Of a stretch of 64,000 nucleotides of DNA, positions 13,466 to 62,231 are shown in pieces. The notes beneath the pieces are model-generated. The model was not told the DNA's origin and made no database searches. It saw nothing but the letters and a program-made list of their open reading frames with translations. The DNA comes from an uncultured bacterium. GTDB lineage: Bacteria > Muiribacteriota > CAYSPT01. The first letter of the stretch is position 1. Every line of letters begins with the position of its first letter. The stretch lies in contig CAZQHK010000016.1 in the NCBI GenBank assembly GCA_964593455.1, positions 18,339 to 82,338 on the forward strand. The letters are read 5' to 3'. The position numbers and the translations under genes are program-made.

Positions 13466-13468
13466 ACG

Positions 13469-26390: not shown

Positions 26391-26400
26391 GCGAGATCTG

Positions 26401-27375: not shown

Positions 27376-27388
27376 GAGGTGCGTTCCA

Positions 27389-28624: not shown

Positions 28625-28697
28625 CGTTTCCTTATCCGGTCGGTGAATACCGACGGGGATAGATAAAAAGAGAGAATCGCGAAGGAGGTAGTGGGAG

Positions 28698-43274: not shown

Positions 43275-43281
43275 GGTATTC

Positions 43282-45426: not shown

Positions 45427-45609
45427 CCCGCATATTTCACCAGTCTCTGTCGTGAGGACATGGAGGCGCTTGTAACTTCAAGGCACGCGACCAAGGCTTC
45501 CGCAGACGTATCCTTTGCGATACGTTGAGGACAGCCGACCGAGCGTAACGCAGAAGATGCACGTGCATCCGTGTCCGCAACAGGATGATTGGTGAAATAT
45601 GCGGGCTAT
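45424..45609. mobile_element. MITE-like repeat element, copy A (~186 bp) with perfect 19-bp terminal inverted repeats TAGCCCGCATATTTCACCA
   Basis: Left TIR 45424-45442 and right TIR 45591-45609 are a perfect reverse complement. The internal sequence is ~85% identical to the reverse complement of copy B (56750-56934) and contains an internal hairpin ACGTATC...GATACGT. The left TAG is the stop codon of the acyl-CoA synthetase. Confidence 0.6.
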
Positions 45610-45616
45610 TGCTGCC

Positions 45617-46894
45617 TCAGGGTGAGTAGAGGACGATATCCTTATAGCGTTCCATGTTGTCGTCCTGTTTATCTGCTCCCGGACTGTACAGCACAAAAGA
45701 GTCTCCCGATCGCCGGTAGATCAAATCTGCATTGGTATAGACGTCTCCGGGTAACGGTCGCCCCGCGTGATCCCTGAGTTCCGTCAAGCTGTTCGGATAC
45801 GCGTTTCGGTCTCGGTAAAACTCGTTTAGCAGGTGAATTATCTCAAGTCCGCGCCTGTACTGGGAGATTTTCAGATCCTGGATATACGCCCGTTTGATAC
45901 CCGGTACGGCAATAGCGATCAGGGTCGCCGCCAGGCGCTCACCGCCTGACAGGCTGCGCTCTCCCCCTCCGCCTGCTTCCCTGGATAGTTTCATTATGTA
46001 TTCGCTTACCCGGTCGAGATCTGCTTCTCCATCCACGAATCCCCGTTTCATGGCCTTCTCGCCTTCGTCGTAGATAAAGGCCAGCATCCGGTCAAAATGT
46101 TTCTGGGCCGCCCGGCCGTAAAAAAATATGAGGAACCGGTCATAGAGGCTTTTCTTTACTTTGGTCGGCTTTTCGGTTTCGTCGCTGCTACCCGTGGAAA
46201 ACAACGACAGGCTGAAATGCTCCTTGAAGTTGAATCTTTCCAGACTCGTCCGTTCGGCATCGAGGGCCTCACTCAGGCCGGCTCTCTTTTCCAGGAGGAG
46301 ATCGATTGATTCCAGGATGGTCTTTTCCTCGCGGTTGTCGAGACAGCGGTTCCCCATCAGCAAGGCCAGTCTTTCCAGGGCCACTTTCTGGATGGCGATG
46401 GAAATCATGTGGGTGATCAAGGTTCTCTGGGTCCCGAATCCGTATCCGCTGTCGATACCGCACTTGAACACCTGGCGATATACGAGGCTGGCTTTCGAGA
46501 TACGGCCGGTAAGTTTGAAATAATCACCAAAAACGGCCACGGCCCGGCCGCTTGTCCTGAGCGTGTTGAAATCGGGAATATCACCGTGAATTATTTCCAG
46601 GAAGTTCATTGTTCGATAATCTTTGGGAGGAAAAACGATATAGGTCGGTATTTCCTGCCGGTAGTATTTCATGAACTGCTCAAAAAAGTCTTTATGGATT
46701 ATTACGTATTCTTTCAGTGCCGGCAGGTCTTTCTCTTCCAGGGGTATTCCTGTGATAAGTCCGGGTTGGTATTCAAGTCCCTGACAGAAATCGAGCGCAA
46801 TCTTTTTGGCGCGGCAGACAGGTGGCAGGATGATTGCCTGGATGAACAGGACCAGCAAACTTACTATCCCCAACAGCCGAAGGTCTTTATTCAT
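45617..46894 (-). CDS. Hypothetical secreted / membrane-anchored protein
   Basis: ATG at 46894 gives the N-terminus MNKDLRLLGIVSLLVLFIQAIILPPV (signal/anchor). 425 aa, no recognised domain. Gly-rich loop REAGGGGERSLSGGER. Confidence 0.4.
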   Translation of the reverse strand: MNKDLRLLGIVSLLVLFIQAIILPPVCRAKKIALDFCQGLEYQPGLITGIPLEEKDLPALKEYVIIHKDFFEQFMKYYRQEIPTYIVFPPKDYRTMNFLEIIHGDIPDFNTLRTSGRAVAVFGDYFKLTGRISKASLVYRQVFKCGIDSGYGFGTQRTLITHMISIAIQKVALERLALLMGNRCLDNREEKTILESIDLLLEKRAGLSEALDAERTSLERFNFKEHFSLSLFSTGSSDETEKPTKVKKSLYDRFLIFFYGRAAQKHFDRMLAFIYDEGEKAMKRGFVDGEADLDRVSEYIMKLSREAGGGGERSLSGGERLAATLIAIAVPGIKRAYIQDLKISQYRRGLEIIHLLNEFYRDRNAYPNSLTELRDHAGRPLPGDVYTNADLIYRRSGDSFVLYSPGADKQDDNMERYKDIVLYSP

Positions 46895-46974
46895 GAGATA
46901 TCCATTGTACCGGATAGTGTTTAGAGAGGCAATGAACTGTTGAATACACCGGATTAACATGATACCTTGTCACC

Positions 46975-47616
46975 ATGGGCAAGCGTAAGCGTATCGGACT
47001 CGACTTTGACAATACCATCGTCGGTTACGACGAGCTGTTTGCGACTCTGGCACTCGAGCAGGGGATGCTCACAAGGGTTTCGGAGGGTGGGAAACCGGCT
47101 ATCCGTGAAAACCTGCGTTCAAAAGGCGAGCAGGGTGAGCTGGAATGGCAGCGATTACAGTCTCTCGCGTACGGAGCCCGTATCGGCGAAGCCAAGCTGA
47201 TCGAAGGGGTCGCTCCCTTTATTCTCTCCTGCCGCCGACGGAACTGTGAACTTTTCATCGTCAGTCACAAGACACGCTATGCCGGTATGGATCCCGGCGG
47301 TGTAAATCTTCGCCGGGCGGCACTTGATTGGATGTCCGCCAGGAATTTTTTCGATGAAGCCGGCCTCGGCTTCAAACGTGCCGACATCTATTTTGCCGGC
47401 ACCCGTTTTGAAAAGATAGAACGGATCCGCTTACTTCGATGTGACCTGTTTATCGACGATCTGATTGAAGTATTTACCAACCCGGCTTTTCCCACCGATG
47501 TCGAAGCTGTTCTCTTTAGTCCGGGACCGGGGTTTGATAGAAAGGCTTCTAGCGGCGTAAAGAGGGTGGCGGCTTTTGTTTCGTGGAAGGATATCGCGGG
47601 CCATGTGTTTAAGTAA
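46975..47616 (+). CDS. HAD-superfamily hydrolase-like protein
   Basis: N-terminal motif I GLDFDNTIV (DxDxT). Confidence 0.6.
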   Translation: MGKRKRIGLDFDNTIVGYDELFATLALEQGMLTRVSEGGKPAIRENLRSKGEQGELEWQRLQSLAYGARIGEAKLIEGVAPFILSCRRRNCELFIVSHKTRYAGMDPGGVNLRRAALDWMSARNFFDEAGLGFKRADIYFAGTRFEKIERIRLLRCDLFIDDLIEVFTNPAFPTDVEAVLFSPGPGFDRKASSGVKRVAAFVSWKDIAGHVFK

Positions 47617-48655
47617 TGATCATGGTGAAACATTATCAGCCTTGAAAGAGGAGACTGAACATCTGGCCGGCATACCCGTGACGCATATAAAACCGGTATC
47701 GGGCGGCCGAAACAACCGCGTTTACCGGGTGCGGTTAACCGACGGCCGATGTCTGGCGCTCAAAAAATATTTTCACTCTCCGGAAGATCCCCGGGATCGG
47801 CTCCGGACCGAGTTTTCCACACTTCGTTTCTTGTGGGAAAACGGAATCAATTACGTGCCGGAACCGGTTGCCTGCGACAGAGAATCCGGAATAGCGCTTT
47901 ACCGTTGGATTGAAGGTGAAAAGGTGGCCGACCCGGCTGCCGGGGACATCGACCGGGTGGTGGATTTTTTGTCTGCTCTCAAGCGGCTGGCCGGCTGCCC
48001 GGCGGCTGCCTCGCTGAGGCCGGCGTCGGAGGCCTGCCTTTGCGCTGATGAATTGATTGCACAGGTTGAAGCACGGTTCGAGAGACTGAGTTGTGTGGCC
48101 ACCGATTATCCGGAGCTGGAGAGGTTCCTGAGAGAACGGTTACAGTCCAGAATTCACTTGGTGAAGGAGCGGCTGCTGAACGGATATGCTGATAATGGAC
48201 TCTCCTGTTCGGAGGATATCGAGATGGCGTTTCGTACGTTGTCACCGGCAGATTTTTGTTTTAATGATACATTGTATTCTTCAGACGGGATTCTATTTTT
48301 TCTCGACTTCGAGTACTTCGGGTGGGATGATCCGGTGAAAATGCTTTCTGATTTCCTGCTGCATCCGGGAATGAAAATATCTCTCGAACTTAAGGAACGG
48401 TTCCTGAACGGAACATTCAACGTGTTTTCCACCGACCGGTATTTTCCGGTGCGCTTGAAACTCCAATACCCGATGTACCTGCTTCGCTGGAGCCTTATTA
48501 TTCTCAATGAGTTTCTACCCGAGGTCTGGAGCCGCCGCTCGTTTGCCGGGGCAGGCGCCTCCCGGGCCGCCAGGAACAAACAGCTTGATAAGGCTGAATC
48601 ATTTCTGCGTGGTGTTGAACACGATGACATGGCTCCGTTCCTCCAGTGCCTTTAA
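47603..48655 (+). CDS. Aminoglycoside/choline-kinase-like phosphotransferase (APH family)
   Basis: Catalytic-loop-like ADFCFND and metal-binding LDFEYFGWDDP (IDFE...DP) motifs of the APH/ChoK fold. N-terminal nucleotide-binding region VSGGRNNRVYRV...ALKKY. Confidence 0.6.
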   Translation: MCLSNDHGETLSALKEETEHLAGIPVTHIKPVSGGRNNRVYRVRLTDGRCLALKKYFHSPEDPRDRLRTEFSTLRFLWENGINYVPEPVACDRESGIALYRWIEGEKVADPAAGDIDRVVDFLSALKRLAGCPAAASLRPASEACLCADELIAQVEARFERLSCVATDYPELERFLRERLQSRIHLVKERLLNGYADNGLSCSEDIEMAFRTLSPADFCFNDTLYSSDGILFFLDFEYFGWDDPVKMLSDFLLHPGMKISLELKERFLNGTFNVFSTDRYFPVRLKLQYPMYLLRWSLIILNEFLPEVWSRRSFAGAGASRAARNKQLDKAESFLRGVEHDDMAPFLQCL

Positions 48656-48760
48656 AATCTCCAACCTCACTTTCTACACCTCTTCAGAGCACTTCTGGTA
48701 TAATATCAAGTCTGGCCAATAATTGCGGGAATCGGCAGGAAGAACGGTAACGGTGGCGAC

Positions 48761-50341
48761 ATGACAGGCGAAAACATGGCACGGGAGTGCACCTCAAGCG
48801 GTTCCGGGCGGTGGTACATCTGGCTGCTCGTGGTAGCGATCTTGATCGGTGTCTCTCACACGTTATTGTACCGGGACTGTTCGGTCGAGGATTCTTATAT
48901 CGCGTTCAAGTACATTGACAACTGGTATCGGGGTAACGGATTTACGTACAACGTGGGAGAACCGGTTGAAGGGTACTCCAACTTCCTATGGCTGGTGTTT
49001 ATCGGGGCCGGCCGGGTACTGAAGATTTCCGAAGCGGCCCGTTGGCTCGGCGGTCTTGTGGGGTGGCTCCCGGGGGAATCCGGTGATGTGCTTTGTGCCA
49101 GGATCCTAGGTACAATTATCTTCGCTCTTATTATCCTTATCGGGGCGACGATGGTGCGGCGTCAATTCGGTACCGGCGCCGGTGCCGGCGCTGCCTTGCT
49201 GCTGGCTTTAAGTTTCCCTCTTTCCTTCTATTCGGTGACCGGTCTGGAGACCGGTTTTTTTACCTTGTTGTTGACTGTTACCGTTTTCAGGTATCTGGAC
49301 AACCGCTGCCGTATCGATCTCATGACTGTCCTGCTCCTGCACCTGGTGGCGGTAAGTCGCGTGGAAGGCGTGCTTTATTTCTTCCCGTTCTTTGGTTATG
49401 ATCTTTTCTCCGCCGGGAAATGGCACCGCCGCCACACATTGTCGCTGGCTGTGTTCTCCGTGCTTGGACTGGGATTTATCTCCTGGCGATGGTGGTATTT
49501 CGGGTCCGTGCTCCCGCAGGTTTTTTTCGCCCGGTTCCCGTTGAACGATCCCACCGTCAAACTTCCCTGGATTCTGCGTGGATTCGATGATATGGTTCTG
49601 TTCATCAGGAGCACCGGCGGCATTCTGGGGGGGCTTCTCATCCTTTGCAGCCTGGGATCAAAGATGTTTCGCCGGCGTGTCGGGTTCCTGCTGTGGGTCA
49701 TAGCTGCCGGTCTCGTATTCCAAAAGTTAGTGGGCGGAGATTTTATGCTGGGGGCCCGGTATCTTATTCCGGTGCTTCCCTGTTATTTGGCATGTTTACT
49801 GGGGGCTGTTTCCCGGGTGGTGGACAGGCTTTCTAAAGACGCCATGTTCACCTGCCCGCTTGGAAATGTGAAACTACCTTTGATAGTGACTCTGGCAGTA
49901 ATCTGGGGTATTTTCCAATTTTCACAAACCGTGGAGTTTCTGGCGTATCCGATGCGCTACCCGAACTTCCTGATGCATTCCCGGACCCTGAGAACCACCG
50001 CCAACTGGTTGAAGGAACGTTACGACAAAAACACGGTCCTTTCGTGTTGGCGATTTGGCGCGGTGGGATATGTTTCCGGTTTAAAAATCAGAGACCTGGA
50101 AGGAATCGTTGTCCGGGATACCGGCCGGAACCGTTTTCGTAGGGCCCTCGGCCTGGAGCCGGCTATTGAGCGGGAACGTCCTGCTCCGGATCTTATCCTG
50201 GAACCGTTTTCCACCGACATTCACCTTGAAGAGAAGGAAGTCTCCCGGTACGATAATCGTTACCGGTTGATTCATCTGTTTCCCATCGCGGAAGGGGTTA
50301 CCTGGCGGCTTTTGGAGATCGTTCCCGGCGAGAAACAGTAA
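48761..50341 (+). CDS. Polytopic membrane protein, putative GT-C-fold glycosyltransferase (ArnT/PMT-like)
   Basis: About 12 predicted TM helices. Conserved Asp-containing first loop DSYIAFKYIDNWYRGNG. Soluble C-terminal domain. Context of sugar-modification genes. Assignment by architecture only. Confidence 0.4.
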   Translation: MTGENMARECTSSGSGRWYIWLLVVAILIGVSHTLLYRDCSVEDSYIAFKYIDNWYRGNGFTYNVGEPVEGYSNFLWLVFIGAGRVLKISEAARWLGGLVGWLPGESGDVLCARILGTIIFALIILIGATMVRRQFGTGAGAGAALLLALSFPLSFYSVTGLETGFFTLLLTVTVFRYLDNRCRIDLMTVLLLHLVAVSRVEGVLYFFPFFGYDLFSAGKWHRRHTLSLAVFSVLGLGFISWRWWYFGSVLPQVFFARFPLNDPTVKLPWILRGFDDMVLFIRSTGGILGGLLILCSLGSKMFRRRVGFLLWVIAAGLVFQKLVGGDFMLGARYLIPVLPCYLACLLGAVSRVVDRLSKDAMFTCPLGNVKLPLIVTLAVIWGIFQFSQTVEFLAYPMRYPNFLMHSRTLRTTANWLKERYDKNTVLSCWRFGAVGYVSGLKIRDLEGIVVRDTGRNRFRRALGLEPAIERERPAPDLILEPFSTDIHLEEKEVSRYDNRYRLIHLFPIAEGVTWRLLEIVPGEKQ

Positions 50342-50356
50342 CAGGAGAATACTTCT

Positions 50357-51205
50357 ATGGCTACAGAGTTTCATTCATCAGCCGACGGCCGCCGCACGTT
50401 GCTTGACGAACGTTCAAAACACCTTCGCCGCCTGGTCATCCGCGGACTCCAGGGAGGTAACCGGGGGCATCTGGGTTCTTCGTTATCGCTGATTGAAATA
50501 CTGCGGGTGCTTTACGATGATGTGCTGCGTTACCGGTCGGAAGAACCCTGGTGGGAGGGACGGGACCGATGTATTCTCAGCAAAGGGCACGGCTGTCTGG
50601 CTCTCTACGCTGTTTTGGTAGATAAAGGGTTTTTCCCCGCGGTAGAACTCGATCGTTTCTGCCGGTTTGACGCGGTTCTGGGCGGACATCCCGAGCGGGG
50701 CAAAATCCCGGGAGTCGAAGCTTCTACCGGGGCGTTGGGACACGGTCTTTCCATGGGAGTCGGGATGGCTCTGGCTCTCCGGGCCAAAAAAAAAGATTCC
50801 AGGGTTTTTGTGGTCATGGGTGATGGGGAGATCAACGAAGGTTCGGTCTGGGAGGCAGCCATGAGTGCCTCCAAACATAGACTTTCCAACTTGATCGCCC
50901 TGGTTGATTACAACAAGATCCAGTCGTATGGGCCTACGAGAGAAGTACAGGAACTCCACCCGTTGCCGGCCAAGTGGGAGAGTTTTGGGTTTGCTGTGCG
51001 TGAGGTTGACGGCCATGATGTAATGGCCTTATTCGAGCAGTTAAGCGATCTCCCGTTTAGCGCCGGCAGACCCGGTGTTGTCATCTGTCACACGGTCAAA
51101 GGGAAAGGGATTTCGTTTGCCGAGGGAAATCCGAATTGGCACCACAAATCCCGGATGAAACCGGAAGATTTTCAGTCTATGTATCGGGAAATTGAAGGGT
51201 ATTGA
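50357..51205 (+). CDS. Transketolase, N-terminal (TPP-binding) subunit of a split transketolase
   Basis: GHLGSSLS, SKGHG and GALGHGLSMGVGMAL, with the TPP-binding GDGEINEGSVWEA motif. Confidence 0.9.
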   Translation: MATEFHSSADGRRTLLDERSKHLRRLVIRGLQGGNRGHLGSSLSLIEILRVLYDDVLRYRSEEPWWEGRDRCILSKGHGCLALYAVLVDKGFFPAVELDRFCRFDAVLGGHPERGKIPGVEASTGALGHGLSMGVGMALALRAKKKDSRVFVVMGDGEINEGSVWEAAMSASKHRLSNLIALVDYNKIQSYGPTREVQELHPLPAKWESFGFAVREVDGHDVMALFEQLSDLPFSAGRPGVVICHTVKGKGISFAEGNPNWHHKSRMKPEDFQSMYREIEGY

Positions 51206-51208
51206 TTC

Positions 51209-52132
51209 GTGCGCAAGACCTGTCTCAACATGGTATATGAACTGGCCCGGAAAGATCCCCGGGTGCTCTTCATCGGATCCGATCTGGGGCCCGGTACCCT
51301 GGACCGGTTTCGGCAGGAGATGCCGGACAGGTTCTTCATGGAAGGTGTTTACGAGGGACATGTGGTCGGTATGGCGGCCGGCCTGGCCATGGAAGGATTT
51401 ATCCCGTATGTAAACACCATCGCCTCGTTTCTCACTCGCCGCTCATTCGAACAGGTAGTAATCGATCTTTGTCTGCAAAACTTGCCGGTGCGGCTTATCG
51501 GCAACGGGGGAGGGTTGGTGTACGCGCCCCTGGGGTTGACCCATATGGCGATAGAGGATATCGCTATTTTCAGGACCCTGCCAAACATGACCGTGGTGGC
51601 GCCCAGTGACGCTGAAGAGATGCGCCGGTTCATGGAAAAAAGCATCAATCTGCCCGGCCCTGTTTATATCCGCCTGGGAAAAGGTGGGGATCCCGTTATC
51701 TCACGGGATGAGAACGGTTTCACCATCGGCCGGGGAATCTTGTTGAAAGAACCGGGCCGGGTCCTGTTCATAGCTACGGGGGTGATGACCGGCCGTGTTC
51801 TTCAGGCCTCGGATATCCTGGATGGGCAGGGAATTACGGCGGGAGTTCTTCACGTCCACACGGTCAAACCTCTGGATGAGGATCAGATAGCCGGCCTGGT
51901 CGAGCGGGTGGAGGCCGTGGTCACGGTAGAGGAGCATGTTTTAATGGGTGGACTGGGGAGCGCCGTGGGCGAGCTTCTTATCGACCGTGGCGGCCGTGTC
52001 CCGAAGATGTTCAGGTTGGGACTCCCCGACCGGTTTCCGGAACGCTACGGCCGGCAGGATGATCTGCTTGAATTTTATGGTCTTCAGCCGGAACCCATCG
52101 CCCGGTCGGTGAGCGATTTCATGGCCCGGTAA
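51209..52132 (+). CDS. Transketolase, C-terminal (pyrimidine-binding) subunit of a split transketolase
   Basis: GTG start 3 nt after the N-subunit stop. FFMEGVYEGHVVGMAAGLAMEG and the transketolase C-terminal domain. Confidence 0.9.
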   Translation: MRKTCLNMVYELARKDPRVLFIGSDLGPGTLDRFRQEMPDRFFMEGVYEGHVVGMAAGLAMEGFIPYVNTIASFLTRRSFEQVVIDLCLQNLPVRLIGNGGGLVYAPLGLTHMAIEDIAIFRTLPNMTVVAPSDAEEMRRFMEKSINLPGPVYIRLGKGGDPVISRDENGFTIGRGILLKEPGRVLFIATGVMTGRVLQASDILDGQGITAGVLHVHTVKPLDEDQIAGLVERVEAVVTVEEHVLMGGLGSAVGELLIDRGGRVPKMFRLGLPDRFPERYGRQDDLLEFYGLQPEPIARSVSDFMAR

Positions 52133-52152
52133 TGAGGAAGGTTTAAACTATC

Positions 52153-52815
52153 ATGAAAGAGCTGCTGAATATTGTTACTCCGCTTCACCGGAAAACCAGC
52201 CGGGACTACGTGGGGCGCATGAACGACGGCAAGGTGGAGTGTATGGAGGTGGCCCGGCGGTACGGCCGTGAATTCTGGGACGGTAACCGGCGGTACGGTT
52301 ACGGCGGGTATAGCTATGACGGGCGCTGGGAACCGGTGGCCAGAAGCCTTATCGAGCAATACGGGCTGAGCGCGGACGCGGCTATCCTCGATGTCGGCTG
52401 CGGGAAAGGGTATCTTCTGCACGAGTTGAAGAAACTACTGCCACAGGCTCGACCAGCGGGTTTTGATATCTCCGGGTATGCCGTTGCCAACGCCAAAGAG
52501 GAAATACGTGACACTCTTTTTGTCAGCAATGCCCGTGACCCGTTCCCGTTCGATGATGCTGAATTCGATCTGGCTATTTCCCTGACCGCGCTCCACAACT
52601 TGCGGGTAAACGAGCTCAAGGCGGCCCTGGCTCAGATGGAACGCGTGGCCCGGAACAAGTACCTGGTGGTAGAAAGCTATCGCAGTGAACTGGAGCTTTT
52701 TAACCTCCAGTGCTGGGCCCTGACATGCGAGTCTTTCTACGATCCGCGGGAATGGGTGTGGCTGTTTAACGAGTTCGGTTACACCGGGGACTACGAGTTC
52801 ATATATTTTGAGTAG
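52153..52815 (+). CDS. Class I SAM-dependent methyltransferase
   Basis: Motif I ILDVGCGKGYL and post-I acidic residue. 220 aa. Confidence 0.75.
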   Translation: MKELLNIVTPLHRKTSRDYVGRMNDGKVECMEVARRYGREFWDGNRRYGYGGYSYDGRWEPVARSLIEQYGLSADAAILDVGCGKGYLLHELKKLLPQARPAGFDISGYAVANAKEEIRDTLFVSNARDPFPFDDAEFDLAISLTALHNLRVNELKAALAQMERVARNKYLVVESYRSELELFNLQCWALTCESFYDPREWVWLFNEFGYTGDYEFIYFE

Positions 52816-52826
52816 GGGAAAACTCC

Positions 52827-53897
52827 ATGGGACTCCTGTATACTGGAATGAAGATCTTTCATTTCAAAGATAAACTCGATTCTCTGCCCGCCGCCCACCA
52901 GGGAATTCTGCCACCGCTTCACGTGCGGATCAAACCTACCAACGTCTGCGCGCATAAGTGCCGCTACTGCGCCTACCGGATGGATAGTCTACAGCTTGGC
53001 CGGGACATGGAGGAGAGGGATACCATTGCGCGGGACAAGATGCTTGAAATTCTGGACGACCTGATCGAAATGGGAGTACGGGCGGTTACGTTCAGCGGCG
53101 GTGGCGACCCGTTTTACTACCCGCACCTCACCGAAGCGGTAAAGAAACTGGTTGCCAGCCCGGTCAAGTTTGCCTCTCTCACCAACGGTGCCCGGCTGGA
53201 GGATGAGCTGGCTGAACTTTTTGCTCACCACGCCACCTGGCTCAGGGTTTCCATCGACGGATGGGACGATTCGAGTTATGCCCGGTATCGCAATGTCCCT
53301 GAAGGAGAGTTCAGCCGGGTGATGAATAACATGGAACGCTTTAAAGAACTGGCCGGACCGTGTTACCTGGGAGTGAGTTTTGTGGTGGATAAGGAGAACG
53401 CGTCTCACGTCTACGAATTCATCATGAAGCTTCGCGATATCGGGGTGGACAGCGTCAAGGTGTCTCTCTGTATCGTCAGTAACAGCGGTCGGGAGAACAA
53501 CGAGTATCATCAACCTCACTTCGAGCTCGTGCAGAGGCAGATAAACCGGGCGTATTCCGATATCCGGGACGAACGGTTGGAGATCTTCAACTCTTATCAC
53601 CATGACCTGGAGACGTTTAAGAAACGATACCGTTGGTGTCCCTACATCCAGATACTGCCGATTATCGGGGCCGATCTTAACGTTTACTCCTGCCAGGATA
53701 AAGCGTACAATCTCGAGGAAGGTCTGATCGGCTCTCTCAAGGAGTGTTCGTTCAAAGAGTTCTGGTATTCAGGTAAAGAGAAATTTTTCACTGTGGACCC
53801 GTCGTGTCACTGTAACCATCACTGTGTGGCGGACGAGCGCAACCGCAGAGTGCTGGAGTACCTGGACGCCGACCCGGACCACGTGGTTTTTGTGTGA
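52827..53897 (+). CDS. Radical SAM enzyme with Cys-rich C-terminal region
   Basis: CAHKCRYCAY (CxxxCxxC) near the N-terminus, FSGGGDP glycine-rich motif, and additional C-terminal cysteines (CPYI...YSCQD...CHCNHHC) suggesting an auxiliary cluster. Confidence 0.75.
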   Translation: MGLLYTGMKIFHFKDKLDSLPAAHQGILPPLHVRIKPTNVCAHKCRYCAYRMDSLQLGRDMEERDTIARDKMLEILDDLIEMGVRAVTFSGGGDPFYYPHLTEAVKKLVASPVKFASLTNGARLEDELAELFAHHATWLRVSIDGWDDSSYARYRNVPEGEFSRVMNNMERFKELAGPCYLGVSFVVDKENASHVYEFIMKLRDIGVDSVKVSLCIVSNSGRENNEYHQPHFELVQRQINRAYSDIRDERLEIFNSYHHDLETFKKRYRWCPYIQILPIIGADLNVYSCQDKAYNLEEGLIGSLKECSFKEFWYSGKEKFFTVDPSCHCNHHCVADERNRRVLEYLDADPDHVVFV

Positions 53898-53912
53898 TTT
53901 GGAGGACCCAGA

Positions 53913-55010
53913 GTGAAAATTCCTTATCGCGATCTCAGCGTCAAGGACCTGCGGCGTAAACGCGAACTTCTGGCGGCCGTGGAAAAGGTTCTCTCTCATG
54001 GCCGGATGATTCTCGGCCCGGAGGTCGGTCGGTTCGAGCAGCTGATGGCCGATTCATGCTCAAAACAGTATGCGGTGGGGGTCAGTTCCGGTACCGACGC
54101 CCTGTACCTGGCTCTTCGCAGCCTGGGAGTCGGGCCGGGAGACGAGGTAATCACCACGCCACTTTCCTGGATTGCCACCACCAATGCCATCGTTCAGTGC
54201 GGCGCCGAAGCGGTGTTCGTGGATATCGGCGAGGATTTGAACATCGACGCCGATCTCATCAGTGAGGCCGTTACACCCCGGACCAGGGCCATACTGCCGG
54301 TACATTTTACCGGCCGTCTCTGTGCCATGGATACCATCCTGCATATTGCCGGGGAGCGAAATCTCCTGGTTATTGAAGATGCGGCCCAGGCTTTCGGGGC
54401 GCGCCGGGGAGAAAAGCAGGCGGGTTCTTTCGGGCATGCCGGCTGTTTCAGCATGAATCCCATGAAAATCTGGTGCGCCTGCGGTGAAGCCGGCGCCGTA
54501 GTGACCGATGACCGTGACGTGTATGAAAAGCTTTGTACGCTCAGGTACGCCGGTACGGTCAACAAGGAGGACTGCCATTACCCGAGCTTGAACGGGCGCA
54601 TCGACACGGTGCAGGCAGCCATGCTGCTGGTGGATTTTAATTATCTTCCGGAAAAAATCGCACGGCGGCAGGAGATTGCCCGCGTTTACACCGAAGGTCT
54701 CCATGATTTGGTGGGTTGTCCGCGGGAAGACGGTTCTTACCATTGCTACTACTCTTACACGGTGCTGGCCGAAAAGCGGGAAAAGCTGGTTGAACACCTG
54801 TCCGGGAAGGGTATCGAAACGAAAGTTCAACATCCGATCCTGATACCCTACCACACTGCCTATAAGGATCGTACCTATCCTCCGCTGCCGGTGGCCGAGC
54901 GGTTGGTGAACCGGATTCTCTGTCTTCCCAACCAGGAAGACCTGTCCACAGAGGAGATCGATTACGTGATCGGTTCGGTTCGGGAGTTCTACGAGGGGCA
55001 GGCACCATGA
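53913..55010 (+). CDS. DegT/DnrJ/EryC1/StrS-family PLP-dependent sugar aminotransferase
   Basis: GTG start after GGAGGA. Typical DegT blocks (ILGPEVGRFEQLMA, VSSGTDALYLAL, EDAAQAFGA) and conserved lysine in SMNPMKIW. Confidence 0.9.
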   Translation: MKIPYRDLSVKDLRRKRELLAAVEKVLSHGRMILGPEVGRFEQLMADSCSKQYAVGVSSGTDALYLALRSLGVGPGDEVITTPLSWIATTNAIVQCGAEAVFVDIGEDLNIDADLISEAVTPRTRAILPVHFTGRLCAMDTILHIAGERNLLVIEDAAQAFGARRGEKQAGSFGHAGCFSMNPMKIWCACGEAGAVVTDDRDVYEKLCTLRYAGTVNKEDCHYPSLNGRIDTVQAAMLLVDFNYLPEKIARRQEIARVYTEGLHDLVGCPREDGSYHCYYSYTVLAEKREKLVEHLSGKGIETKVQHPILIPYHTAYKDRTYPPLPVAERLVNRILCLPNQEDLSTEEIDYVIGSVREFYEGQAP

Positions 55011-55540
55011 AATACCGGAAGGAGAACGACGAGGTTTTTTACGCCGTCGGGGACTCCGTCCGTGTTACCCGGGCAGAAGTGGAGTTCGTTAAAACCGGGG
55101 CCCGGGACAGTATTCGGGGTCGTTTCCGTTTGTGCCTGCACTCCGATCCCGGGGCAAAAATACATCAAATGCTCATCGCCCATACCGGCGGTATCTATGT
55201 CCGCCCTCACAAGCATATCGGCCGGAGCGAGTCATTTCAGCTGATAGATGGGGCGCTTTGCGTAGTGGTGTTTGACTCTCGGGGAACGGTGACCGACGTG
55301 GTTTCAATGGACAATTCAGACGTCGGCTGTCCCTTTCTTTACCGTATTCCGGCAGACTGTTTTCACACGGTCCTGCTGCTCTCAAGCATGGTAGTGTTTC
55401 TCGAGACTACCGGTGGACCGTTTAATCCTTCGGAAACGGTCTTTGCACCGTGGGCGCCACCGGTCGAAAAAAAAGATGAGCTTTCTCTATACAGGCAAAA
55501 ACTCGATCTGGAGATAAATCAGTGGCCTGATAAGAAATGA
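55007..55540 (+). CDS. WbuC-family cupin-fold protein
   Basis: ATGA overlap with the aminotransferase. The pattern RLCLHSDPGAKIHQMLIAHTGGIYVRPHKH matches my recollection of the WbuC cupin family (O-antigen-cluster associated). Confidence 0.6.
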   Translation: MKYRKENDEVFYAVGDSVRVTRAEVEFVKTGARDSIRGRFRLCLHSDPGAKIHQMLIAHTGGIYVRPHKHIGRSESFQLIDGALCVVVFDSRGTVTDVVSMDNSDVGCPFLYRIPADCFHTVLLLSSMVVFLETTGGPFNPSETVFAPWAPPVEKKDELSLYRQKLDLEINQWPDKK

Positions 55541-55673
55541 TTTCTCACCTGCAAAAACATTATTCTGGTTACGTGTTCCGGATCAATTTGGTGATATAAT
55601 CAGAACGATCTGTAAACGTGGTATCTTTGTTGCAAAGTCAGGTTTGGAAGACCCTGATAAGGAGATTTCCCGG

Positions 55674-56645
55674 ATGAATTGGTTCTACATGAAACTCCAG
55701 CCGAAAGATGAGGATGATGTGCTCTTCGTTCATTACGGGTTACCCCGGACGGGAAGTTCTACCATCCGGTTTCTCATCCGCCGCTACTGCAACCTTCTCG
55801 GACTGAAATGGGAATCTTTCGAGGCGCAAAACGCGGTAGTCAATCCCGGTTGTAAATATCTGCTGGTTGAAATCCCGTATCCTGTTCATCTGGCCACCAA
55901 CCGGGAATGCCGTTATATAACGACGCTGAGAGATCCGGTCAAAGCGGTGTGTTCCTGGTATTTCTGGCTCACCAGGATCGGCCGGAAAATCACTCTGGAA
56001 GACTATGTCCGGCAATTACCGAAATCCTATAATCTCATGTCGCGCTGGCTCATAAGGCTCAATGATGAAACCGTGAGCGAAATGAATCGCGCTCAACCGG
56101 ATTTTATGAACGACACGACAGGATTTTTCAATGATATTCCTGATGATGAGTTGTACAAAGCAGCTCTCGAGGCAATAGAAAGCAAGATATCATTGATCGG
56201 TATCCTGGAGCAGTTCGAGGATTTTTCTTTTGCTATGCTCGACTTGTTTGCCTGGAAGATTCTGCCTGTCTATAGCCGGACGAATTACAGTATAAAACCC
56301 AGAGATTGGTCATTTAACCGTCTCGAAAAATCGATGAAAAAGAAGATTATGTCCTCTTCAGCTGTGGACAGGCGCGTGTTTTCTTATGTGAGGAAACGTT
56401 TTCGGGATGTGTCTGCGGATGTGCGGAATAAGTATGGTAACGAGATCGAGAAATACCGTTCCTTCTGCCGCCAATTGGATGATTTTATCGTTCGAGAAAA
56501 AGGACTGGTTTTGGAAGATGGGAATATCGTCTCTCAAAACTGGGAACAAACCGTTGTAGAAAAGCCTATAGGCATCGAAATAAAAGCCTCGATACAGAAG
56601 CAGTTGGGAATAATCATGGCAGAGGATTGGTTACCTATTATCTAA
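55674..56645 (+). CDS. Sulfotransferase-family protein (PAPS-dependent)
   Basis: AAGGAG RBS 9 nt before ATG 55674. 5'-PSB motif YGLPRTGSST and 3'-PB motif TLRDPVKAV. The ORF call from 55644 (TTG) is the longer alternative. Confidence 0.65.
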   Translation: MNWFYMKLQPKDEDDVLFVHYGLPRTGSSTIRFLIRRYCNLLGLKWESFEAQNAVVNPGCKYLLVEIPYPVHLATNRECRYITTLRDPVKAVCSWYFWLTRIGRKITLEDYVRQLPKSYNLMSRWLIRLNDETVSEMNRAQPDFMNDTTGFFNDIPDDELYKAALEAIESKISLIGILEQFEDFSFAMLDLFAWKILPVYSRTNYSIKPRDWSFNRLEKSMKKKIMSSSAVDRRVFSYVRKRFRDVSADVRNKYGNEIEKYRSFCRQLDDFIVREKGLVLEDGNIVSQNWEQTVVEKPIGIEIKASIQKQLGIIMAEDWLPII

Positions 56646-56749
56646 CAGTACCGAACCTTCCGAGTCATTTGACGGCTTGACCTGCTAATCCAGCTTACTT
56701 TCCACATTCCTTAACTGATCTTCTGGAATCTCTACATAGAATGAGAACC

Positions 56750-56934
56750 TAGCCTGGATATTTCACCAGTCTTCCTGCTGCGGCCACGGATGCACCCGCA
56801 TCTTCTGCGTTGTGCTCGGTCGCCTGTCCTCGACGTATCGCAGAGGATACGTCTGCGGAAGGCTCGGTTGCACGCCTTGAATTTGCAGGCACCTCCGCGA
56901 CCTCGCTACGGAAACTCGTGAAATATCCGGGCTA
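56750..56934. mobile_element. MITE-like repeat element, copy B (~185 bp), inverted relative to copy A
   Basis: Left TIR TAGCCTGGATATTTCACCAG and right TIR (reverse complement) TAGCCCGGATATTTCACGAG. The interior is the reverse complement of copy A at ~85% identity. The right-end TAG (complement of CTA at 56932-56934) is the stop codon of pmbA on the minus strand. Confidence 0.6.
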
Positions 56935-58356
56935 GGCCGAAACCGAGACATCGTCCACCAGTATCGCGGGACAGAAGATATTGTTGCTGGCCTGGTAAGG
57001 TGTGTCTCCCAACGCCAGCAGGTGGTTGAGATCTTCCAGGATATTGCCCGATACCATGGTGTTCTTCACGCGGCCGGCGAGCTGCCCGTTCTTGATCCGG
57101 TATCCGAGATAGACATTCACCGAGTAATCCCCGTTTTGAATATCGCCCCGGCCGGCGCCCATGACCTGGTTCACGAGCAGACCATCGTCCACCATGCGGA
57201 TAATCTCTTCGAGCGGGGCAGGTCCTGGAGAGACGGTTATATTGCTGATGGTGGTGTGCGGCATGACGGCAAAACTGGTACCGCCGCTGCGGCTTCTCCG
57301 GTACCCGTTGCCGGTGGGTGGGATTTTGAGACGCGCGGCGGTCTCCAGATCGCAGATAATCGAGCTGGGAATGCCGTTTTCTACCAGGACGGTCCGCCGT
57401 GACGGCGTTCCCTCGTCGTCAAAGGGCGAGCTTCCGGGTAGAAAATCCATGGTGCTGTCATCCACCACCGTCAGGTTTGAGCTGAAGGTTTCCTTATCCA
57501 TCCTGGATTGCAGGATGGAGATACCTTCCAGAAAACTCCGGCCGTTCACGGCCGCCAACAGCGGCAGCAAAATGGCATTTATCGCCGATCCGGTAAAAAG
57601 CACCGGACATTGTCCGGTGCTCATGGAGCTTATTTCGCGGGCCAGTTGAACTTTTTCCACGAGTTTCCGGGCCACACCCGCTAAATGCTCGGGGTCCCAA
57701 CGGCAGGAGTAAGAACTCTCGGAACAGGAGAGAATGTCACCTTCTTTTACGAGTTTAGCCGAGACGAATACCACTACCAGGCTCTGGAGATAGCTCCCTT
57801 TCAAAGCCTGGTTGTTTCTTACCGATTTGAGCTCGAACACGCGATACACATCAGCCAGGACATTGGCGTCGGGTAGATCTTTCAGCACCCGGTCGACGAC
57901 CTCCCGGCCGATATCAATGAGACTGTTGATGTCCTGGTCCGCCACCTCCCGGTCGAAGGTTTTGACCGGAGAAAAAGAGGTGGCCGGGGTCAGGAACGAG
58001 GCTGCCGAGGTGGGACCGAGCGGGGCCATTTCCAAAGCCAGCAGGAGCGCTTCCATCAATCGGCTGGACTCGGTGGTGGAGGCGATTCCCATGCGTCCGT
58101 CCCGTAAAACTCTGAGTCCCCAGCCTTCGGACTCCTTGTGTTGGCTCTGTTTGAGGTCGCGGTTCTCAAAGCTGAAATGATCCAAATCCCGCGTTTCATA
58201 AAAAATTTCCAGGGATGTCCCCCGGGCCCTGGCGGCTTCTTCAAGCCCCGCGTAGAGAACTTCACGGGCCTGCTCGTTTTTCAGGGTGCTTTCGTTTCCT
58301 TGAATCTCCGTCATCTGCTTCATGTCCTTCACGTTACATGCCTCCAACCACGACAT
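56932..58356 (-). CDS. pmbA: TldE/PmbA-family protein (non-catalytic partner of TldD metallopeptidase)
   Basis: PmbA/TldD fold, lacks HExxxH. Paired with and overlapping tldD. Probable start at M12 (MKQMTEI). Confidence 0.8.
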   Translation of the reverse strand: MSWLEACNVKDMKQMTEIQGNESTLKNEQAREVLYAGLEEAARARGTSLEIFYETRDLDHFSFENRDLKQSQHKESEGWGLRVLRDGRMGIASTTESSRLMEALLLALEMAPLGPTSAASFLTPATSFSPVKTFDREVADQDINSLIDIGREVVDRVLKDLPDANVLADVYRVFELKSVRNNQALKGSYLQSLVVVFVSAKLVKEGDILSCSESSYSCRWDPEHLAGVARKLVEKVQLAREISSMSTGQCPVLFTGSAINAILLPLLAAVNGRSFLEGISILQSRMDKETFSSNLTVVDDSTMDFLPGSSPFDDEGTPSRRTVLVENGIPSSIICDLETAARLKIPPTGNGYRRSRSGGTSFAVMPHTTISNITVSPGPAPLEEIIRMVDDGLLVNQVMGAGRGDIQNGDYSVNVYLGYRIKNGQLAGRVKNTMVSGNILEDLNHLLALGDTPYQASNNIFCPAILVDDVSVSA

Positions 58357-59695
58357 CCCTGATCATCAGGGCCGGGCATCCCTTTGAACGGGGCAGGGGA
58401 AACTGTCCGCCTTTCCCGCATCCACCGCCTTCGCTCCAGACTATCTCGTCGCCGACGGCCTCGATGTTTTTGAGCGATTCGAACACGTTTCCGGTCAGCA
58501 TCACATTACGCACCGGTTCCGCTATTTTGCCTTTTCTGATCATGTATCCATGCTGGGCCCTGAACGTAAACATCTCCTGCGAGGTCTGGCCGCCGGTGGT
58601 GCCGCAGGCCAGTATACCCAGTTTTATGTCGCCGATCATCTCGTCCAAACTGGTATCACCCGGTTCCACAAACGTATTGGTCATCCGCACCAGCGGTGAG
58701 AATCGGTGGTCAAGGGCCCGTGCGTTTCCGGTAACGGGTTCATCCATCCTGAAAGAGGTCTCCCGCGAATGCATCCGGCCAACCAGTTCCCCTTCCCGTA
58801 TCAGGTAGGTTTTTTTGGACGGGACACCTTCATCGTCGTAGAGATAGGACCCCCGGTGTCCCGGGATAGCGGCTCCATCACCGATGTTCAGAGTCGATGG
58901 CCCGAACCTGGTACCGATCGAGAGCAGTTCGCAGAGCCGCTTGTTGTTGCAGACCGAGTCCCCCTCCGACAGGTGTCCGAAAGCTTCGTGAATGAAGGTA
59001 CCGGCCAGGTAGGGATCGAGCACTACCGGATAACGGCCTCCTTTGACCGGGGAAGCCGAGAGCATATTCACGGACCGTTTGACGATCTCTTCCACCTGGT
59101 CGTGGCGTGATTCGAACATTTTGCCGGCTTCGATGGTTCCAAAACTCATGATGGCTTTTTGAATGGTGTCGTAGCGTCGGGCTAAAGCGCTGGCGCTCAT
59201 GGTATAGTCGGCTTTCTCCTGGGATACCAGGCAGCCGTCGGAGGTTAGAATCGTTACTTTTTTAAACACGTCATGGTAAGCGACGACGGAACTTTCTATG
59301 GCCGGCCGGTGAGAGAAAATTATCCCGTTATAGTCTTCCAGCATGGAGAGTTTGCGGGCCAGTAGTATCCGCCGTGGATCGTCCTCGGGTTTGATTTTTA
59401 TCTGGGCTACCTCCCGGAGAACCGGTGCCAGGCCTGTCTTCTGGGCGGCTACGCATCGGGCCATCCGGTCGGCCAGGCGGATATTATACTCCAGATTCTT
59501 CAGATTGTTGAACGAGGAAAATCCCCATCCTCCTTCGTGGAAGACCCGGACATTACCGCCCACGAAGGTGCTTTCCGTCAATTTTTCCAGTTTCTCGCTT
59601 CTGAAAAGAATCTCGGTGGTATCGTATTCCTCTATCCGGATTTCAATGTAGTCGGCCTTGATAGACCGGATAGCGTCCACCACATGGTTCTCCAC
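58334..59695 (-). CDS. tldD: TldD-family zinc metallopeptidase
   Basis: HEAFGH (HExxxH) motif. C-terminal Gly-rich GGGCGKGGQ loop typical of TldD. Confidence 0.9.
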   Translation of the reverse strand: MENHVVDAIRSIKADYIEIRIEEYDTTEILFRSEKLEKLTESTFVGGNVRVFHEGGWGFSSFNNLKNLEYNIRLADRMARCVAAQKTGLAPVLREVAQIKIKPEDDPRRILLARKLSMLEDYNGIIFSHRPAIESSVVAYHDVFKKVTILTSDGCLVSQEKADYTMSASALARRYDTIQKAIMSFGTIEAGKMFESRHDQVEEIVKRSVNMLSASPVKGGRYPVVLDPYLAGTFIHEAFGHLSEGDSVCNNKRLCELLSIGTRFGPSTLNIGDGAAIPGHRGSYLYDDEGVPSKKTYLIREGELVGRMHSRETSFRMDEPVTGNARALDHRFSPLVRMTNTFVEPGDTSLDEMIGDIKLGILACGTTGGQTSQEMFTFRAQHGYMIRKGKIAEPVRNVMLTGNVFESLKNIEAVGDEIVWSEGGGCGKGGQFPLPRSKGCPALMIRDVVVGGM

Positions 59696-59963
59696 GGTAC
59701 CGGGTCTCCTTTCATGATTTTTAGCGCTCTCGTTCAGGAGAAGCTATGATACCATGAATAGACAGCCACTCCTTGATCCGTTTAATCATTATCTCTCCGA
59801 AGTTAAACTCATCTTCATTTTACTGTGCTGCGGGGTCGACGTCAATTTTGAATGCAGGGAGGGCTTAAACCACTTCCAAAGAGTAGGCCGATGTGCTACA
59901 ATTAGGCCTTCATTCAGACCGTGTTTTATTTGGAATTATTTATCTTGAGAGGAGCGTACCCAT

Positions 59964-61052
59964 ATGCCGATTGTGAACGCTCTGCGGTTTGACTATAAAC
60001 GTGGAGCTATCTTAAGCGACGAAGAATACTGGCATCGCCGCCGCCGCCGGACATTTTTCTCCGAGAATCTTCACAATATTGTTCCTGAACAAATTTCAGA
60101 CAAAACGGGACTTGAAGCTGTGTTGGGCGGGGCCGGGAGTCCTACCTTCTTTCTTGATGTGGTCCGGACGGTTCGCTCCCGGTTGGCGGTCTATCTGCCG
60201 GAAAACGGGGAAGAACTGAAAGAAGGCGCTCCTTCCACCCTTGAAGAGTTGGGAAAGATCGTTCTCGAGGAACTGCACAAAGCGCTGAAACGACGCCTGG
60301 AGAACGTGATTCGTCTCTACTTCGGATTTGGGATGGATGATCTTAACCAGGGATCTTTTGATTTCAACGGCGAGTCGGTGGAGATTCTTCAGGACCTGGT
60401 TAAGAAGGAAGCCAGGGAGGTTTCTTCGGGAAAAGGAAAAGTGTCGTTTATCAACGACCTGATCGAGAGTCGGGGAGTGCTTTTCGGTTATGATGAAAAG
60501 AAAGGCGTCACCTGTTATTACATTAACGTCAAAGAAGGCGTTCTCTCCGTCACTTCGGGCGGTTTTGAAGCAATCGGCAACGGTAAGTACGCTTCGGGAA
60601 TCACGTTTGCCGAGTTCCTGAACGGTAAGATACTGGACGAGCGCCGAGGCGGATTTGACCCGGTGGAAGGAATGATTGTCCTGCTTAAATCCGGCCTGGC
60701 CGCGGTACAGTATTTCAGCGAAGTAGGCGGAGCCTTCAATATCATCTACCTCGACAATACGGCCGGCTCCCACGCCGAGCGTTATCGTGAAATCCCGTAT
60801 CATACCACCACGCTGGCTGCTGAAATTGTCACCGCTATGGAGTGCGGCGCTTTAGACTACGAGAAAGCATATAACCTGATGGGTTCCTTGATGTTTGGCG
60901 GATCTTCCGTGGAGAAAGTTGAAAAGGAACTCTTTGCTTCCGTTCCCGACGCCGATCGTCTCCATCTGCTGTTGGAGGGCTACAAACTCAGTCAACTGGA
61001 GGTACAGGATCGCAAATCTATCGGACATACCGGAGAGGAAGCGGGCCAATGA
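59964..61052 (+). CDS. Hypothetical protein, paralog 1. N-terminal domain resembles HslV/proteasome-beta Ntn hydrolases but has Pro at position 2
   Basis: Strong RBS [29 protein letters not shown] aligns with HslV [40 protein letters not shown] aligns with HslV DKVIAGFAGGTADAFTLFE. Has a ~180-aa C-terminal extension of unknown fold. Paralogous to the next gene. Confidence 0.35.
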   Translation: [362 protein letters not shown]

Positions 61053-62149: not shown

Positions 62150-62168
62150 CCTGGATATTTCACGAGAG
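62147..62168. repeat. Solo terminal repeat (TAGCCTGGATATTTCACGAGAG) of the MITE-like family
   Basis: Identical over 16 nt to the left TIR of copy B and near-identical to B's right TIR. The TAG is the stop codon of CDS 61049-62149. No matching second TIR within 300 bp. Confidence 0.35.
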
Positions 62169-62231
62169 TAGGCACACTGGTTAGATAGTCAAACAGGACC
62201 CGGGGATACGGATTAATGGAGGTGATGGAGT

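Follow-up and report, generated by a model that had tools for sequence, protein, structure and literature searches.

The subject of this analysis is a sugar-tailoring gene cluster, and the sulfotransferase gene that follows it, in a 64,000-nt stretch of DNA (hereafter the window) from an uncultured bacterium of the Muiribacteriota (contig CAZQHK010000016.1). The initial annotation of positions 50357-56645 listed seven open reading frames (ORFs), and all seven are present there on the + strand, each with Pfam, NCBIfam, profile or fold support. They encode a transketolase-like N subunit (50357-51205; Pfam Transketolase_N, 1.8e-44), a transketolase-like C subunit whose substrate site is altered (51209-52132; Transket_pyr, 1.4e-31, and Transketolase_C, 1.1e-22), a 220-amino-acid (aa) class I S-adenosylmethionine (SAM) methyltransferase (52153-52815; Methyltransf_25, 8.5e-16), a 356-aa radical SAM enzyme (52827-53897; Radical_SAM, 4e-24), a DegT-family pyridoxal phosphate (PLP) sugar aminotransferase (53913-55010; DegT_DnrJ_EryC1, PF01041, 4.1e-98, 329 bits), a 177-aa WbuC-family cupin (55007-55540; NCBIfam TIGR04366, 117.6 bits with a cut-off of 42, 3.2e-34), and a 323-aa divergent carbohydrate sulfotransferase (55674-56645) recognized by profiles and fold comparison as being of the HS2ST/HS6ST/Gal-3-O-sulfotransferase type. 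Intergenic spacing between 50357 and 55540 is -4 to 21 nt, the negative value being the 4-nt overlap of the WbuC start with the DegT stop, by which the small cupin gene is translationally coupled to the aminotransferase. A 133-nt gap separates the WbuC gene from the sulfotransferase gene. The window was compared with 18 other loci by tblastn and ORF clustering; individual loci are given L numbers where they need to be told apart, and window-wide searches refer to the ORFs scanned in the 64-kb window.

The unit originally proposed was too small, as the same-strand gene run begins at 46975, upstream of 50357, and includes three further genes. The first of these (46975-47616, +) encodes a 213-aa HAD-like phosphatase with a DxDxT motif (DFDNT), for which we found no Pfam or NCBIfam match and no solved relative in a sequence search of the PDB. 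The second (47603-48655, +) encodes an APH-family kinase, a putative sugar kinase (Pfam APH, 4e-13), that is 350 aa long from its ATG and is called at that length in public contigs, the ORF list having started it at TTG 47576; the PDB sequence search gave no solved relative for it either. In L011, L025 and L027, too, the HAD-like and APH-type genes come before those for the transketolase-like subunits. After a 105-nt gap there follows a gene (48761-50341, +) for a 526-aa multi-pass membrane protein that is, from its hydrophobic sequence, a candidate GT-C-like glycosyltransferase. We found only 20 homologues for it, of which the distant ones bear the names arabinofuranosyltransferase or dolichyl-phosphate-mannose transferase, or carry PF13231. 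The gene is missing from the syntenic relative L011, and its homologue with 62% identity is found in unrelated surroundings; judged by these comparisons, it is a lineage-specific insertion.

The thiamine-diphosphate enzyme of the cluster has the architecture of a split transketolase, with the thiamine-diphosphate N domain, the pyrimidine-binding domain and the C domain divided between two chains. The N subunit carries the GDG...N motif for thiamine diphosphate. Among solved structures, the C subunit comes closest to the C chain of the split transketolase of Carboxydothermus hydrogenoformans (6yaj, 2.4e-59). The THAG...GEDGASHQ sequence of 6yaj is changed in the window protein to GNGGG...APLGLTHM, and all 10 cassette homologues aligned likewise have other residues in place of the motif's His and Asp. 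We take the replaced THAG and GEDG positions to be those that contact the substrate phosphate and the acceptor C2 hydroxyl in transketolase structures. It could be argued that the pair is simply the pentose-phosphate-pathway enzyme of this organism and that its neighbors are an unrelated collection, given that split transketolases of this size are normal in the central metabolism of some bacteria (6yaj) and that NCBIfam transketolase models match both halves. The matches to NF004559, however, are 248.2 bits for the N subunit and 187.4 bits for the C subunit, both below the cut-off of 488, and the same neighbors recur across phyla at intergenic distances of 3-21 nt, which makes this explanation very improbable; a housekeeping transketolase was rejected on the changed motif and the constant neighbors. 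The pair is probably a specialized C2-transfer enzyme, because the His and Asp of 6yaj are replaced, the scores fall below the NCBIfam cut-offs, and the neighbors are constant.

The radical SAM enzyme belongs to a large and strongly conserved family, with 2175 homologues at E<=1e-20. The best 120 of these are 62-70% identical to it over the full 356 residues and come from Candidatus Brocadia, other Planctomycetota, Sedimentisphaerales, Omnitrophota, Nitrospinota and Sulfuricella, and a genome scan added carriers among the Nitrospirae, Geobacter and the Desulfovibrionaceae. Across Planctomycetota (including anammox bacteria), Omnitrophota, Nitrospirae, Geobacter and Desulfovibrionaceae, identity is 57-70%. 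The initial annotation had described an auxiliary Cys cluster in this protein, and in 18 sequences we found invariant not only the CxxxCxxC motif (C41, C45, C48) but also C179, C271, C289, C329 and C333, five additional cysteines that are probable ligands of an auxiliary Fe-S cluster. The SPASM Pfam model did not match the window protein, and among solved structures the best match was SkfB (6.9e-07), with none close.

Genes around the radical SAM gene recur as well. Methyltransferase homologues 61-70% identical to the window protein were present in 11 of the 18 other loci, no more than about 3.5 kb from the radical SAM gene and mostly directly upstream of it, and homologues of about 40% identity in two further loci bring the total to 13. 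Thirteen of the 18 also have the transketolase-like N gene beside the radical SAM gene; the C gene was recovered in nine loci by strict clustering, and tblastn added a few more. From this comparison, the transketolase-like pair, the methyltransferase and the radical SAM enzyme are a conserved, uncharacterized cassette, found mostly in uncultured bacteria of anaerobe-rich phyla. A literature search found no published description of a transketolase-like/methyltransferase/radical SAM cassette. In one Planctomycetes relative (L010, 6770-7574), a UPF0175/DUF3368 pair resembling a toxin-antitoxin system is inserted between the genes of the two transketolase-like subunits.

Genes that recur beside the cassette point to surface carbohydrate synthesis. 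A second radical SAM/SPASM gene (family F4) lies upstream of it in nine loci, and in seven loci a reversed HldE-like fusion of adenylyltransferase and PfkB kinase, together with a GmhA-like isomerase, is directly upstream; the GmhA-like and HldE-like genes score below the equivalog cut-offs. Other recurrent neighbors encode a MarR-EPS regulator, a GSU2086-family protein, a B12 radical SAM enzyme, a TIGR04372 glycosyltransferase, an ATP-binding-cassette (ABC) exporter, GT9 heptosyltransferase-like proteins, nucleoside diphosphate (NDP)-sugar dehydratases and epimerases, NDP-hexose C-methyltransferases and TylF-type O-methyltransferases. Pairs of pyruvate dehydrogenase E1 (PDH-E1) alpha and beta genes were found in two cassette loci (L018, 2368-4498; L027, 6206-8168), and the NDP-hexose C-methyltransferase genes occur in L016, L020 and L022, near 12000-19300. 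The PDH-E1 pairs, which are possible two-carbon branching enzymes, and the C-methyltransferases suggest that the glycan loci holding the cassette may make several unusual sugars. In the window, a B12-binding radical SAM enzyme encoded at 41820-43337 on the - strand (Pfam B12-binding and Radical_SAM) is a possible outlying member of the cassette, since it clusters with family F7, which is present in five other cassette loci; the gene is followed by one for a GDSL-lipase/TPR protein at 40502-41827 (-).

Window counterparts of the heptose-type neighbors were found far from the operon. At 4220-7428 (+), Pfam and tblastn identified genes for a GSU2086-family protein, a PfkB-type kinase and a heptose-type nucleotidyltransferase fused to KdsB (a CMP-Kdo synthetase domain), the kinase and nucleotidyltransferase occupying 5149-7428. 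By tblastn these genes match F14, F5 and F40, three families whose members immediately precede the cassette in other genomes, and the GSU2086-family protein of the window is 30-34% identical to those beside the cassette elsewhere. They sit between GT9 heptosyltransferase genes and pyrG in a lipopolysaccharide-core cluster. No GmhA-type isomerase was seen in the window, and thus the GSU2086-family protein might replace GmhA. The operon's own phosphate-handling genes are only those for the APH-type kinase and the HAD-like protein, and we infer that the genes at 4220-7428 are distant candidates for activating its sugar. These associations bear on what the transketolase-like enzyme might do. The initial annotation had proposed a two-carbon branched sugar, and a thiamine-diphosphate enzyme suited to C2 transfer is indeed present, but the context of GmhA-like, HldE-like and GT9 genes favors a higher-carbon sugar of heptose type at least equally. 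Lengthening of a sugar phosphate is the role favored by the GmhA- and HldE-like neighbors and by analogy to the lincosamide octose route; alternatively, the enzyme may add a two-carbon branch to a keto sugar, by analogy to YerE and AviB1/B2.

Directly downstream of the radical SAM gene lie the candidates for amino sugar formation. The closest solved relatives of the DegT protein are 7b0d (4.7e-75), QdtB (5.4e-65), DesV and WbpE, the last three of which we take to be nucleotide-sugar 3-aminotransferases, and its PLP Schiff-base lysine (K185) is invariant in seven homologues, indicating an aminotransferase rather than a dehydratase type. It did not reach any NCBIfam equivalog. The DegT gene is directly 3' of the radical SAM gene in L011 and L020 as well, and in both of these, as in the window, the DegT and WbuC genes together follow the radical SAM gene; a WbuC gene is near the radical SAM gene in L011, L013, L016, L020, L022 and L025, four of them without an adjacent DegT gene. 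The cupin metal ligands of WbuC (H45, H68, E75 and H120, a His/His/Glu/His set) are invariant. A PDB sequence search gave no solved relative for WbuC, its family TIGR04366 is without known function, and in the literature it turned up only as a passenger gene beside mcr-9 and blaCTX-M. In L016 and L022 the WbuC gene sits between C-methyltransferase genes. This position, and the existence of QdtA/QdtB cupin/aminotransferase pairs, gave us the idea, and it is only an idea, that WbuC could act on a keto sugar in the manner of a ketoisomerase or epimerase.

The DegT result also raises the question of whether the product might be a small molecule, for example one resembling an aminocyclitol or another natural product derived from a sugar. 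Sedoheptulose 7-phosphate would then come from the transketolase, and the radical SAM and DegT enzymes would play the parts of BtrN and of an inosose aminotransferase, respectively. The best solved relative, 7b0d, was deposited as a "glutamine--scyllo-inositol transaminase" (4.7e-75), the radical SAM enzyme has its extra conserved cysteines, and genes of acyl-CoA-ligase type and for the B12 radical SAM enzyme lie upstream. Against this, no sugar-phosphate cyclase was present among the annotated genes of the window, L001 and L009-L011 (the other loci being annotated for recurrent families only), the cassette is found among GmhA-/HldE-like, GT9, TIGR04372 glycosyltransferase, ABC exporter and NDP-sugar tailoring genes, and such high conservation across phyla would be unusual for a secondary metabolite. 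An aminocyclitol pathway was given low weight on the lack of a cyclase among the genes annotated, and a small-molecule product seems improbable in general.

The identity of the last gene required other methods, as conventional models failed to recognize it. Its likeliest start is ATG 55674, preceded by the ribosome-binding site AAGGAG, and not TTG 55644. The ORF had no Pfam match at E<=0.01 and no NCBIfam match, Sulfotransfer_3 reaching only E=0.24 and 12 bits. A word-indexed search of 5.8 billion proteins returned only three homologues, a metagenome scan with the three-sequence alignment found no sulfotransferase relatives, and a PDB sequence search with the three-sequence profile gave a chance match only. 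The same three-homologue profile, searched against 1.84 billion representatives, recovered about 800 distant relatives in addition to 16 close ones at E<=1e-30. From these an alignment of 60 sequences was made, consisting of the query and 59 sampled relatives, in which Pfam assigned Gal-3-O-sulfotransferase to 45 of the 60 and Sulfotransfer_2 to 42 of the 60; its profile matches HS6ST (5t03) at 1.3e-25 and HS2ST (4ndz) at 3.6e-19. As this profile is dominated by classical members, the subfamily was compared separately by hhalign, and its 17 members align with the 44 classical members at a probability of 100% and E=9.8e-41 over 236 columns. An AlphaFold model computed on the 60-sequence alignment had a predicted local distance difference test score (pLDDT) of 89.3 and a predicted template modeling score (pTM) of 0.90; on three sequences only, pLDDT was 35 and the model unusable. 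In Foldseek searches with the former, the top PDB matches were all sulfotransferases (3f5f at 2.8e-08, then 4ndz, 5t03, LGS1 and many SULTs), with a sulfotransferase fold probability of 1.0 and a moderate TM-score of about 0.5.

The motifs for binding 3'-phosphoadenosine 5'-phosphosulfate (PAPS) that the initial annotation had reported are genuine. PRTGSST is the 5'-phosphosulfate-binding (PSB) loop, the segment GLPRTGSST at residues 22-30 aligning with HIPKTGGT of the classical family, and the 3'-phosphate-binding (PB) motif RDPxxxxxS is represented by TLRDPVKAVCSWY, in which R86, P88 and S94 are invariant both in the 60 sequences and in the 17-member subfamily. Arg and Lys interchange in the PSB loop among the relatives (Lys in P0006; Arg in P0051 and P0054). 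The catalytic base is a His in HS2ST, HS6ST and the SULTs. The His of the invariant "GH" of the classical family aligns with HS2ST His142, and in the window protein this residue is Glu66, with E, H or Q found there among subfamily members; H72, another conserved His, is retained. Thus, on full alignment, the PAPS-binding motifs proved intact, and the catalytic His did not. Arg in the PSB loop has precedent in Stf0 and NodH (PMC11625862), HS2ST His142 is described as the putative catalytic base (PMC6094399), and Glu bases are known in NST and HS3ST, but on a different loop (PMC11625862). The profiles and the structural model together indicate that the last ORF is a genuine, very divergent PAPS-type carbohydrate sulfotransferase, which we read as probably active.

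Whether this enzyme belongs to the same pathway as its neighbors is a separate matter. The initial annotation had drawn all seven genes into a single pathway to a two-carbon-branched, aminated, methylated and sulfated sugar, in which the sulfotransferase would act on the product or its carrier glycan. Several observations favor such a scheme: the genes share a strand, the adjacency of operon and sulfotransferase gene is conserved at 99.8% in six public contigs of the lineage, the sulfotransferase fold and PAPS motifs are intact, and the GT-C-like membrane protein is also lineage-specific, which could mean that the whole glycan was remodeled. Two relatives of the sulfotransferase, 42% and 36% identical to it, have further sulfotransferase genes as neighbors, and one of the two also has TylF-type methyltransferase and glycosyltransferase genes beside it, which fits a role on glycans. 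In L030 (2775-9849) and L031 (998-4417), such relatives are clustered with two or three different sulfotransferase genes, an arrangement that suggests multiply sulfated glycans in uncultured bacteria.

Comparison with the other cassette loci nevertheless speaks against a single pathway, which we consider an unlikely, if still credible, explanation. None of the 18 contains a sulfotransferase homologue, and transketolase, methyltransferase and radical SAM genes are absent from the neighborhoods of the sulfotransferase homologues examined (66%, 42% and 36% identical), the 66%-identical one adjoining peptidase and cyclic-nucleotide (cNMP)-binding genes, an unrelated context. In the closest syntenic relative, L011, whose radical SAM enzyme is 70% identical to that of the window and which shares the downstream TldD/PmbA genes, the position of the sulfotransferase is held by a gene for a 298-aa radical SAM protein and a GT9 gene. 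The G+C content of the sulfotransferase gene is 0.454, lower by 7 to 12.5 points than the 0.525-0.579 of the nine genes in the + strand run that begins at 46975. The 133-nt gap before it contains, within 55592-55664 (+), a promoter-like extended -10 element, TGATATAAT, at 55592-55600, 74 nt upstream of ATG 55674, and the ribosome-binding site at 55659-55664; the + strand of the window contains the pattern TGnTATAAT only 3 times. No ATP sulfurylase or adenosine 5'-phosphosulfate (APS) kinase domain was found among the window ORFs, so that genes for PAPS synthesis are lacking there. On the absence from 18 loci, the unrelated context of the 66% homologue, the replacement in L011, the low G+C content and the gap with its promoter-like site, the sulfotransferase gene is, in our assessment, a separately acquired, lineage-specific add-on at the operon end. 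The sugar-tailoring genes and a real sulfotransferase thus stand as parts of the original proposal, and conservation of the sulfotransferase within the pathway does not. Given this add-on status, sulfation of the same sugar or glycan is plausible but unproven, its tie to the cassette being one of adjacency.

We therefore distinguish the operon from the gene that follows it, and read 46975-55540 as one tightly packed operon for tailoring a probably nucleotide-activated sugar destined for a cell-surface glycan, to which a sulfotransferase was added in this lineage only. We put the probability of this reading at roughly 0.6. The sugar-tailoring set in the initial annotation was confirmed, namely the thiamine-diphosphate enzyme, the methyltransferase, the radical SAM enzyme and the PLP aminotransferase with its Schiff-base lysine, and no known O-antigen type or publication matched the cluster. 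The glycan could be a lipopolysaccharide core, an O-antigen-like polymer or an exopolysaccharide. In the pathway we propose, the thiamine-diphosphate enzyme would move a two-carbon ketol unit and so make a C-C bond, giving either a heptulose- or octulose-type precursor from a sugar phosphate or a two-carbon branch on a keto sugar. The APH-type kinase and HAD-like phosphatase would handle phosphates on the way to the activated sugar, and the radical SAM enzyme and its partner methyltransferase would modify the sugar, with oxygen-independent oxidation, epimerization and methylation as candidate reactions. WbuC and DegT would then act on a keto intermediate to yield an amino sugar, most likely a 3-amino sugar, and the sulfotransferase may sulfate the same glycan.

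A number of observations weigh against this reading or limit it. The operon is without a nucleotidyltransferase, a GmhA-type isomerase or a Leloir glycosyltransferase, the candidates for these steps being 40 kb away, and only 7 of the 18 loci have heptose genes alongside the cassette, the 18 having themselves been picked by similarity to one protein and being mostly from metagenome bins. The window radical SAM enzyme matched no characterized family above an NCBIfam cut-off, and chain extension and branching both remain candidates for what the transketolase-like enzyme may do. The sulfotransferase is without the His base of its closest relatives, and since the catalytic His is a Glu, its activity is plausible and not certain. 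The sulfotransferase gene probably has its own promoter, the site at TGATATAAT being a consensus match only, and a general promoter and terminator scan of 45400-57000 gave counts near the shuffled expectation and was not used.

A more far-reaching interpretation, which we advance only tentatively, is that the cassette is a widespread, undescribed route to a C7-C9 or two-carbon-branched surface amino sugar, in which a transketolase-like enzyme with a remodeled acceptor site would build the skeleton, radical SAM chemistry would replace oxygen- or NAD-dependent tailoring, and, in this marine lineage, a new Glu-base subfamily of sulfotransferases would sulfate the product.

The surroundings of the operon, in this marine bacterium known only through metagenomes, are chromosomal, with a lipopolysaccharide-core cluster at 1-9950 and a division and cell wall (dcw) cluster at 13876-29753. 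A 161-aa ORF at 12036-12521 (+) occupies the usual place of MraZ, directly upstream of the MraW/RsmH methylase gene, without an MraZ match; its sole match was a weak one to a STING ligand-binding domain (E=0.004). Within the dcw cluster, a 307-aa ORF with no significant family match lies between MraY-like and MurD-like genes (20318-21241, +). Divergent from the sugar operon and 14 nt from its start is a gene whose 447-aa product has a hydrophobic segment at its N terminus and matches no family (45617-46960, -). Downstream of the sulfotransferase gene, and convergent with it, are TldD/PmbA genes, part of a block at 56932-63674 in which two TldD/PmbA pairs, one at 56932-59695 (-) and the other beginning at 62232 (+), flank paralogous ORFs at 59964-61052 and 61049-62149 that are about 25% identical to each other and have no assigned function. 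This arrangement, also conserved in L011, resembles a peptide-processing module.

The main value of the locus lies in a widely conserved, unstudied transketolase-like/methyltransferase/radical SAM cassette and in a sulfotransferase subfamily that curated models miss. Working out what the cassette makes would identify a sugar on the surface of many uncultured bacteria and could add a new reaction type to the enzymology of transketolase-like and radical SAM sugar enzymes. That this particular organism makes a sulfated amino sugar is argued only from adjacency. The sulfotransferase shows that curated Pfam models miss some bacterial carbohydrate sulfotransferases, in agreement with a recent review that described a gap in detecting polysaccharide sulfotransferases (PMC11625862). 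As the review counts six bacterial genera reported to synthesize sulfated polysaccharides (PMC11625862), each new candidate sulfotransferase is useful.

Parts of the system resemble several known ones. The split transketolase of Carboxydothermus hydrogenoformans (6yaj/6yak) has the same two-subunit architecture and domain order as the window pair, but the window genes stand in a context of glycan tailoring, not central metabolism, and the substrate-site motif is replaced. YerE, AlmDI/DII and AviB1/B2 are two-carbon branching enzymes of deoxysugar pathways, and the likeness lies in thiamine-diphosphate-dependent addition of two carbons to a nucleotide-linked keto sugar; these enzymes are acetolactate-synthase-like or (AlmDI/DII, AviB1/B2) PDH-E1-like, whereas the window pair is transketolase-like, and the link to heptose-activation genes here favors chain extension at least as much as branching. 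The DesII/DesI and BtrN/BtrS systems, like the window, have a radical SAM gene adjoining a DegT-family gene, and the extra conserved cysteines may point to an auxiliary cluster like that of BtrN in the window enzyme. The latter, however, does not match DesII or BtrN above the cut-offs, the only DesII match being a weak one (53.6 bits, where the cut-off is 450) to F4, the other radical SAM family of the cassette loci, and the constant partner of the cassette enzyme is a methyltransferase, not an aminotransferase. In the QdtA/QdtB and FdtA/FdtB pairs of dTDP-sugar pathways, a cupin 3,4-ketoisomerase works with a 3-aminotransferase, and the window likewise has a DegT protein close to QdtB with a coupled cupin gene; WbuC, in contrast, is of a separate cupin family, TIGR04366, and the aminotransferase gene comes first.

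HS2ST, HS6ST and the Gal-3-O-sulfotransferases (PF03567, PF06990; 3f5f, 4ndz, 5t03) share with the window sulfotransferase their fold, the PSB strand-loop-helix and the PB Arg and Ser. The window enzyme differs in having Arg for Lys in the PSB loop and Glu66 for His142, and, unlike the Golgi sulfotransferases, it is a 323-aa bacterial protein without a membrane anchor.

The lincosamide octose route employs the transaldolase LmbR, the GmhA-like isomerase LmbN, the kinase LmbP, the HAD phosphatase LmbK, the nucleotidyltransferase LmbO and an aminotransferase, and, together with the heptose routes to septacidin and hygromycin B, it follows the logic that we propose here, a C-C enzyme of pentose-phosphate type coupled to sugar-activation genes. 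GmhA-like, kinase, HAD phosphatase, nucleotidyltransferase and DegT functions are all found in or beside the cassette when the loci are taken together. The likeness is one of pathway logic, with differences: the cassette has a transketolase-like enzyme (C2) in place of a transaldolase (C3), it adds two radical SAM enzymes and a dedicated methyltransferase, and its carriers are largely uncultured.

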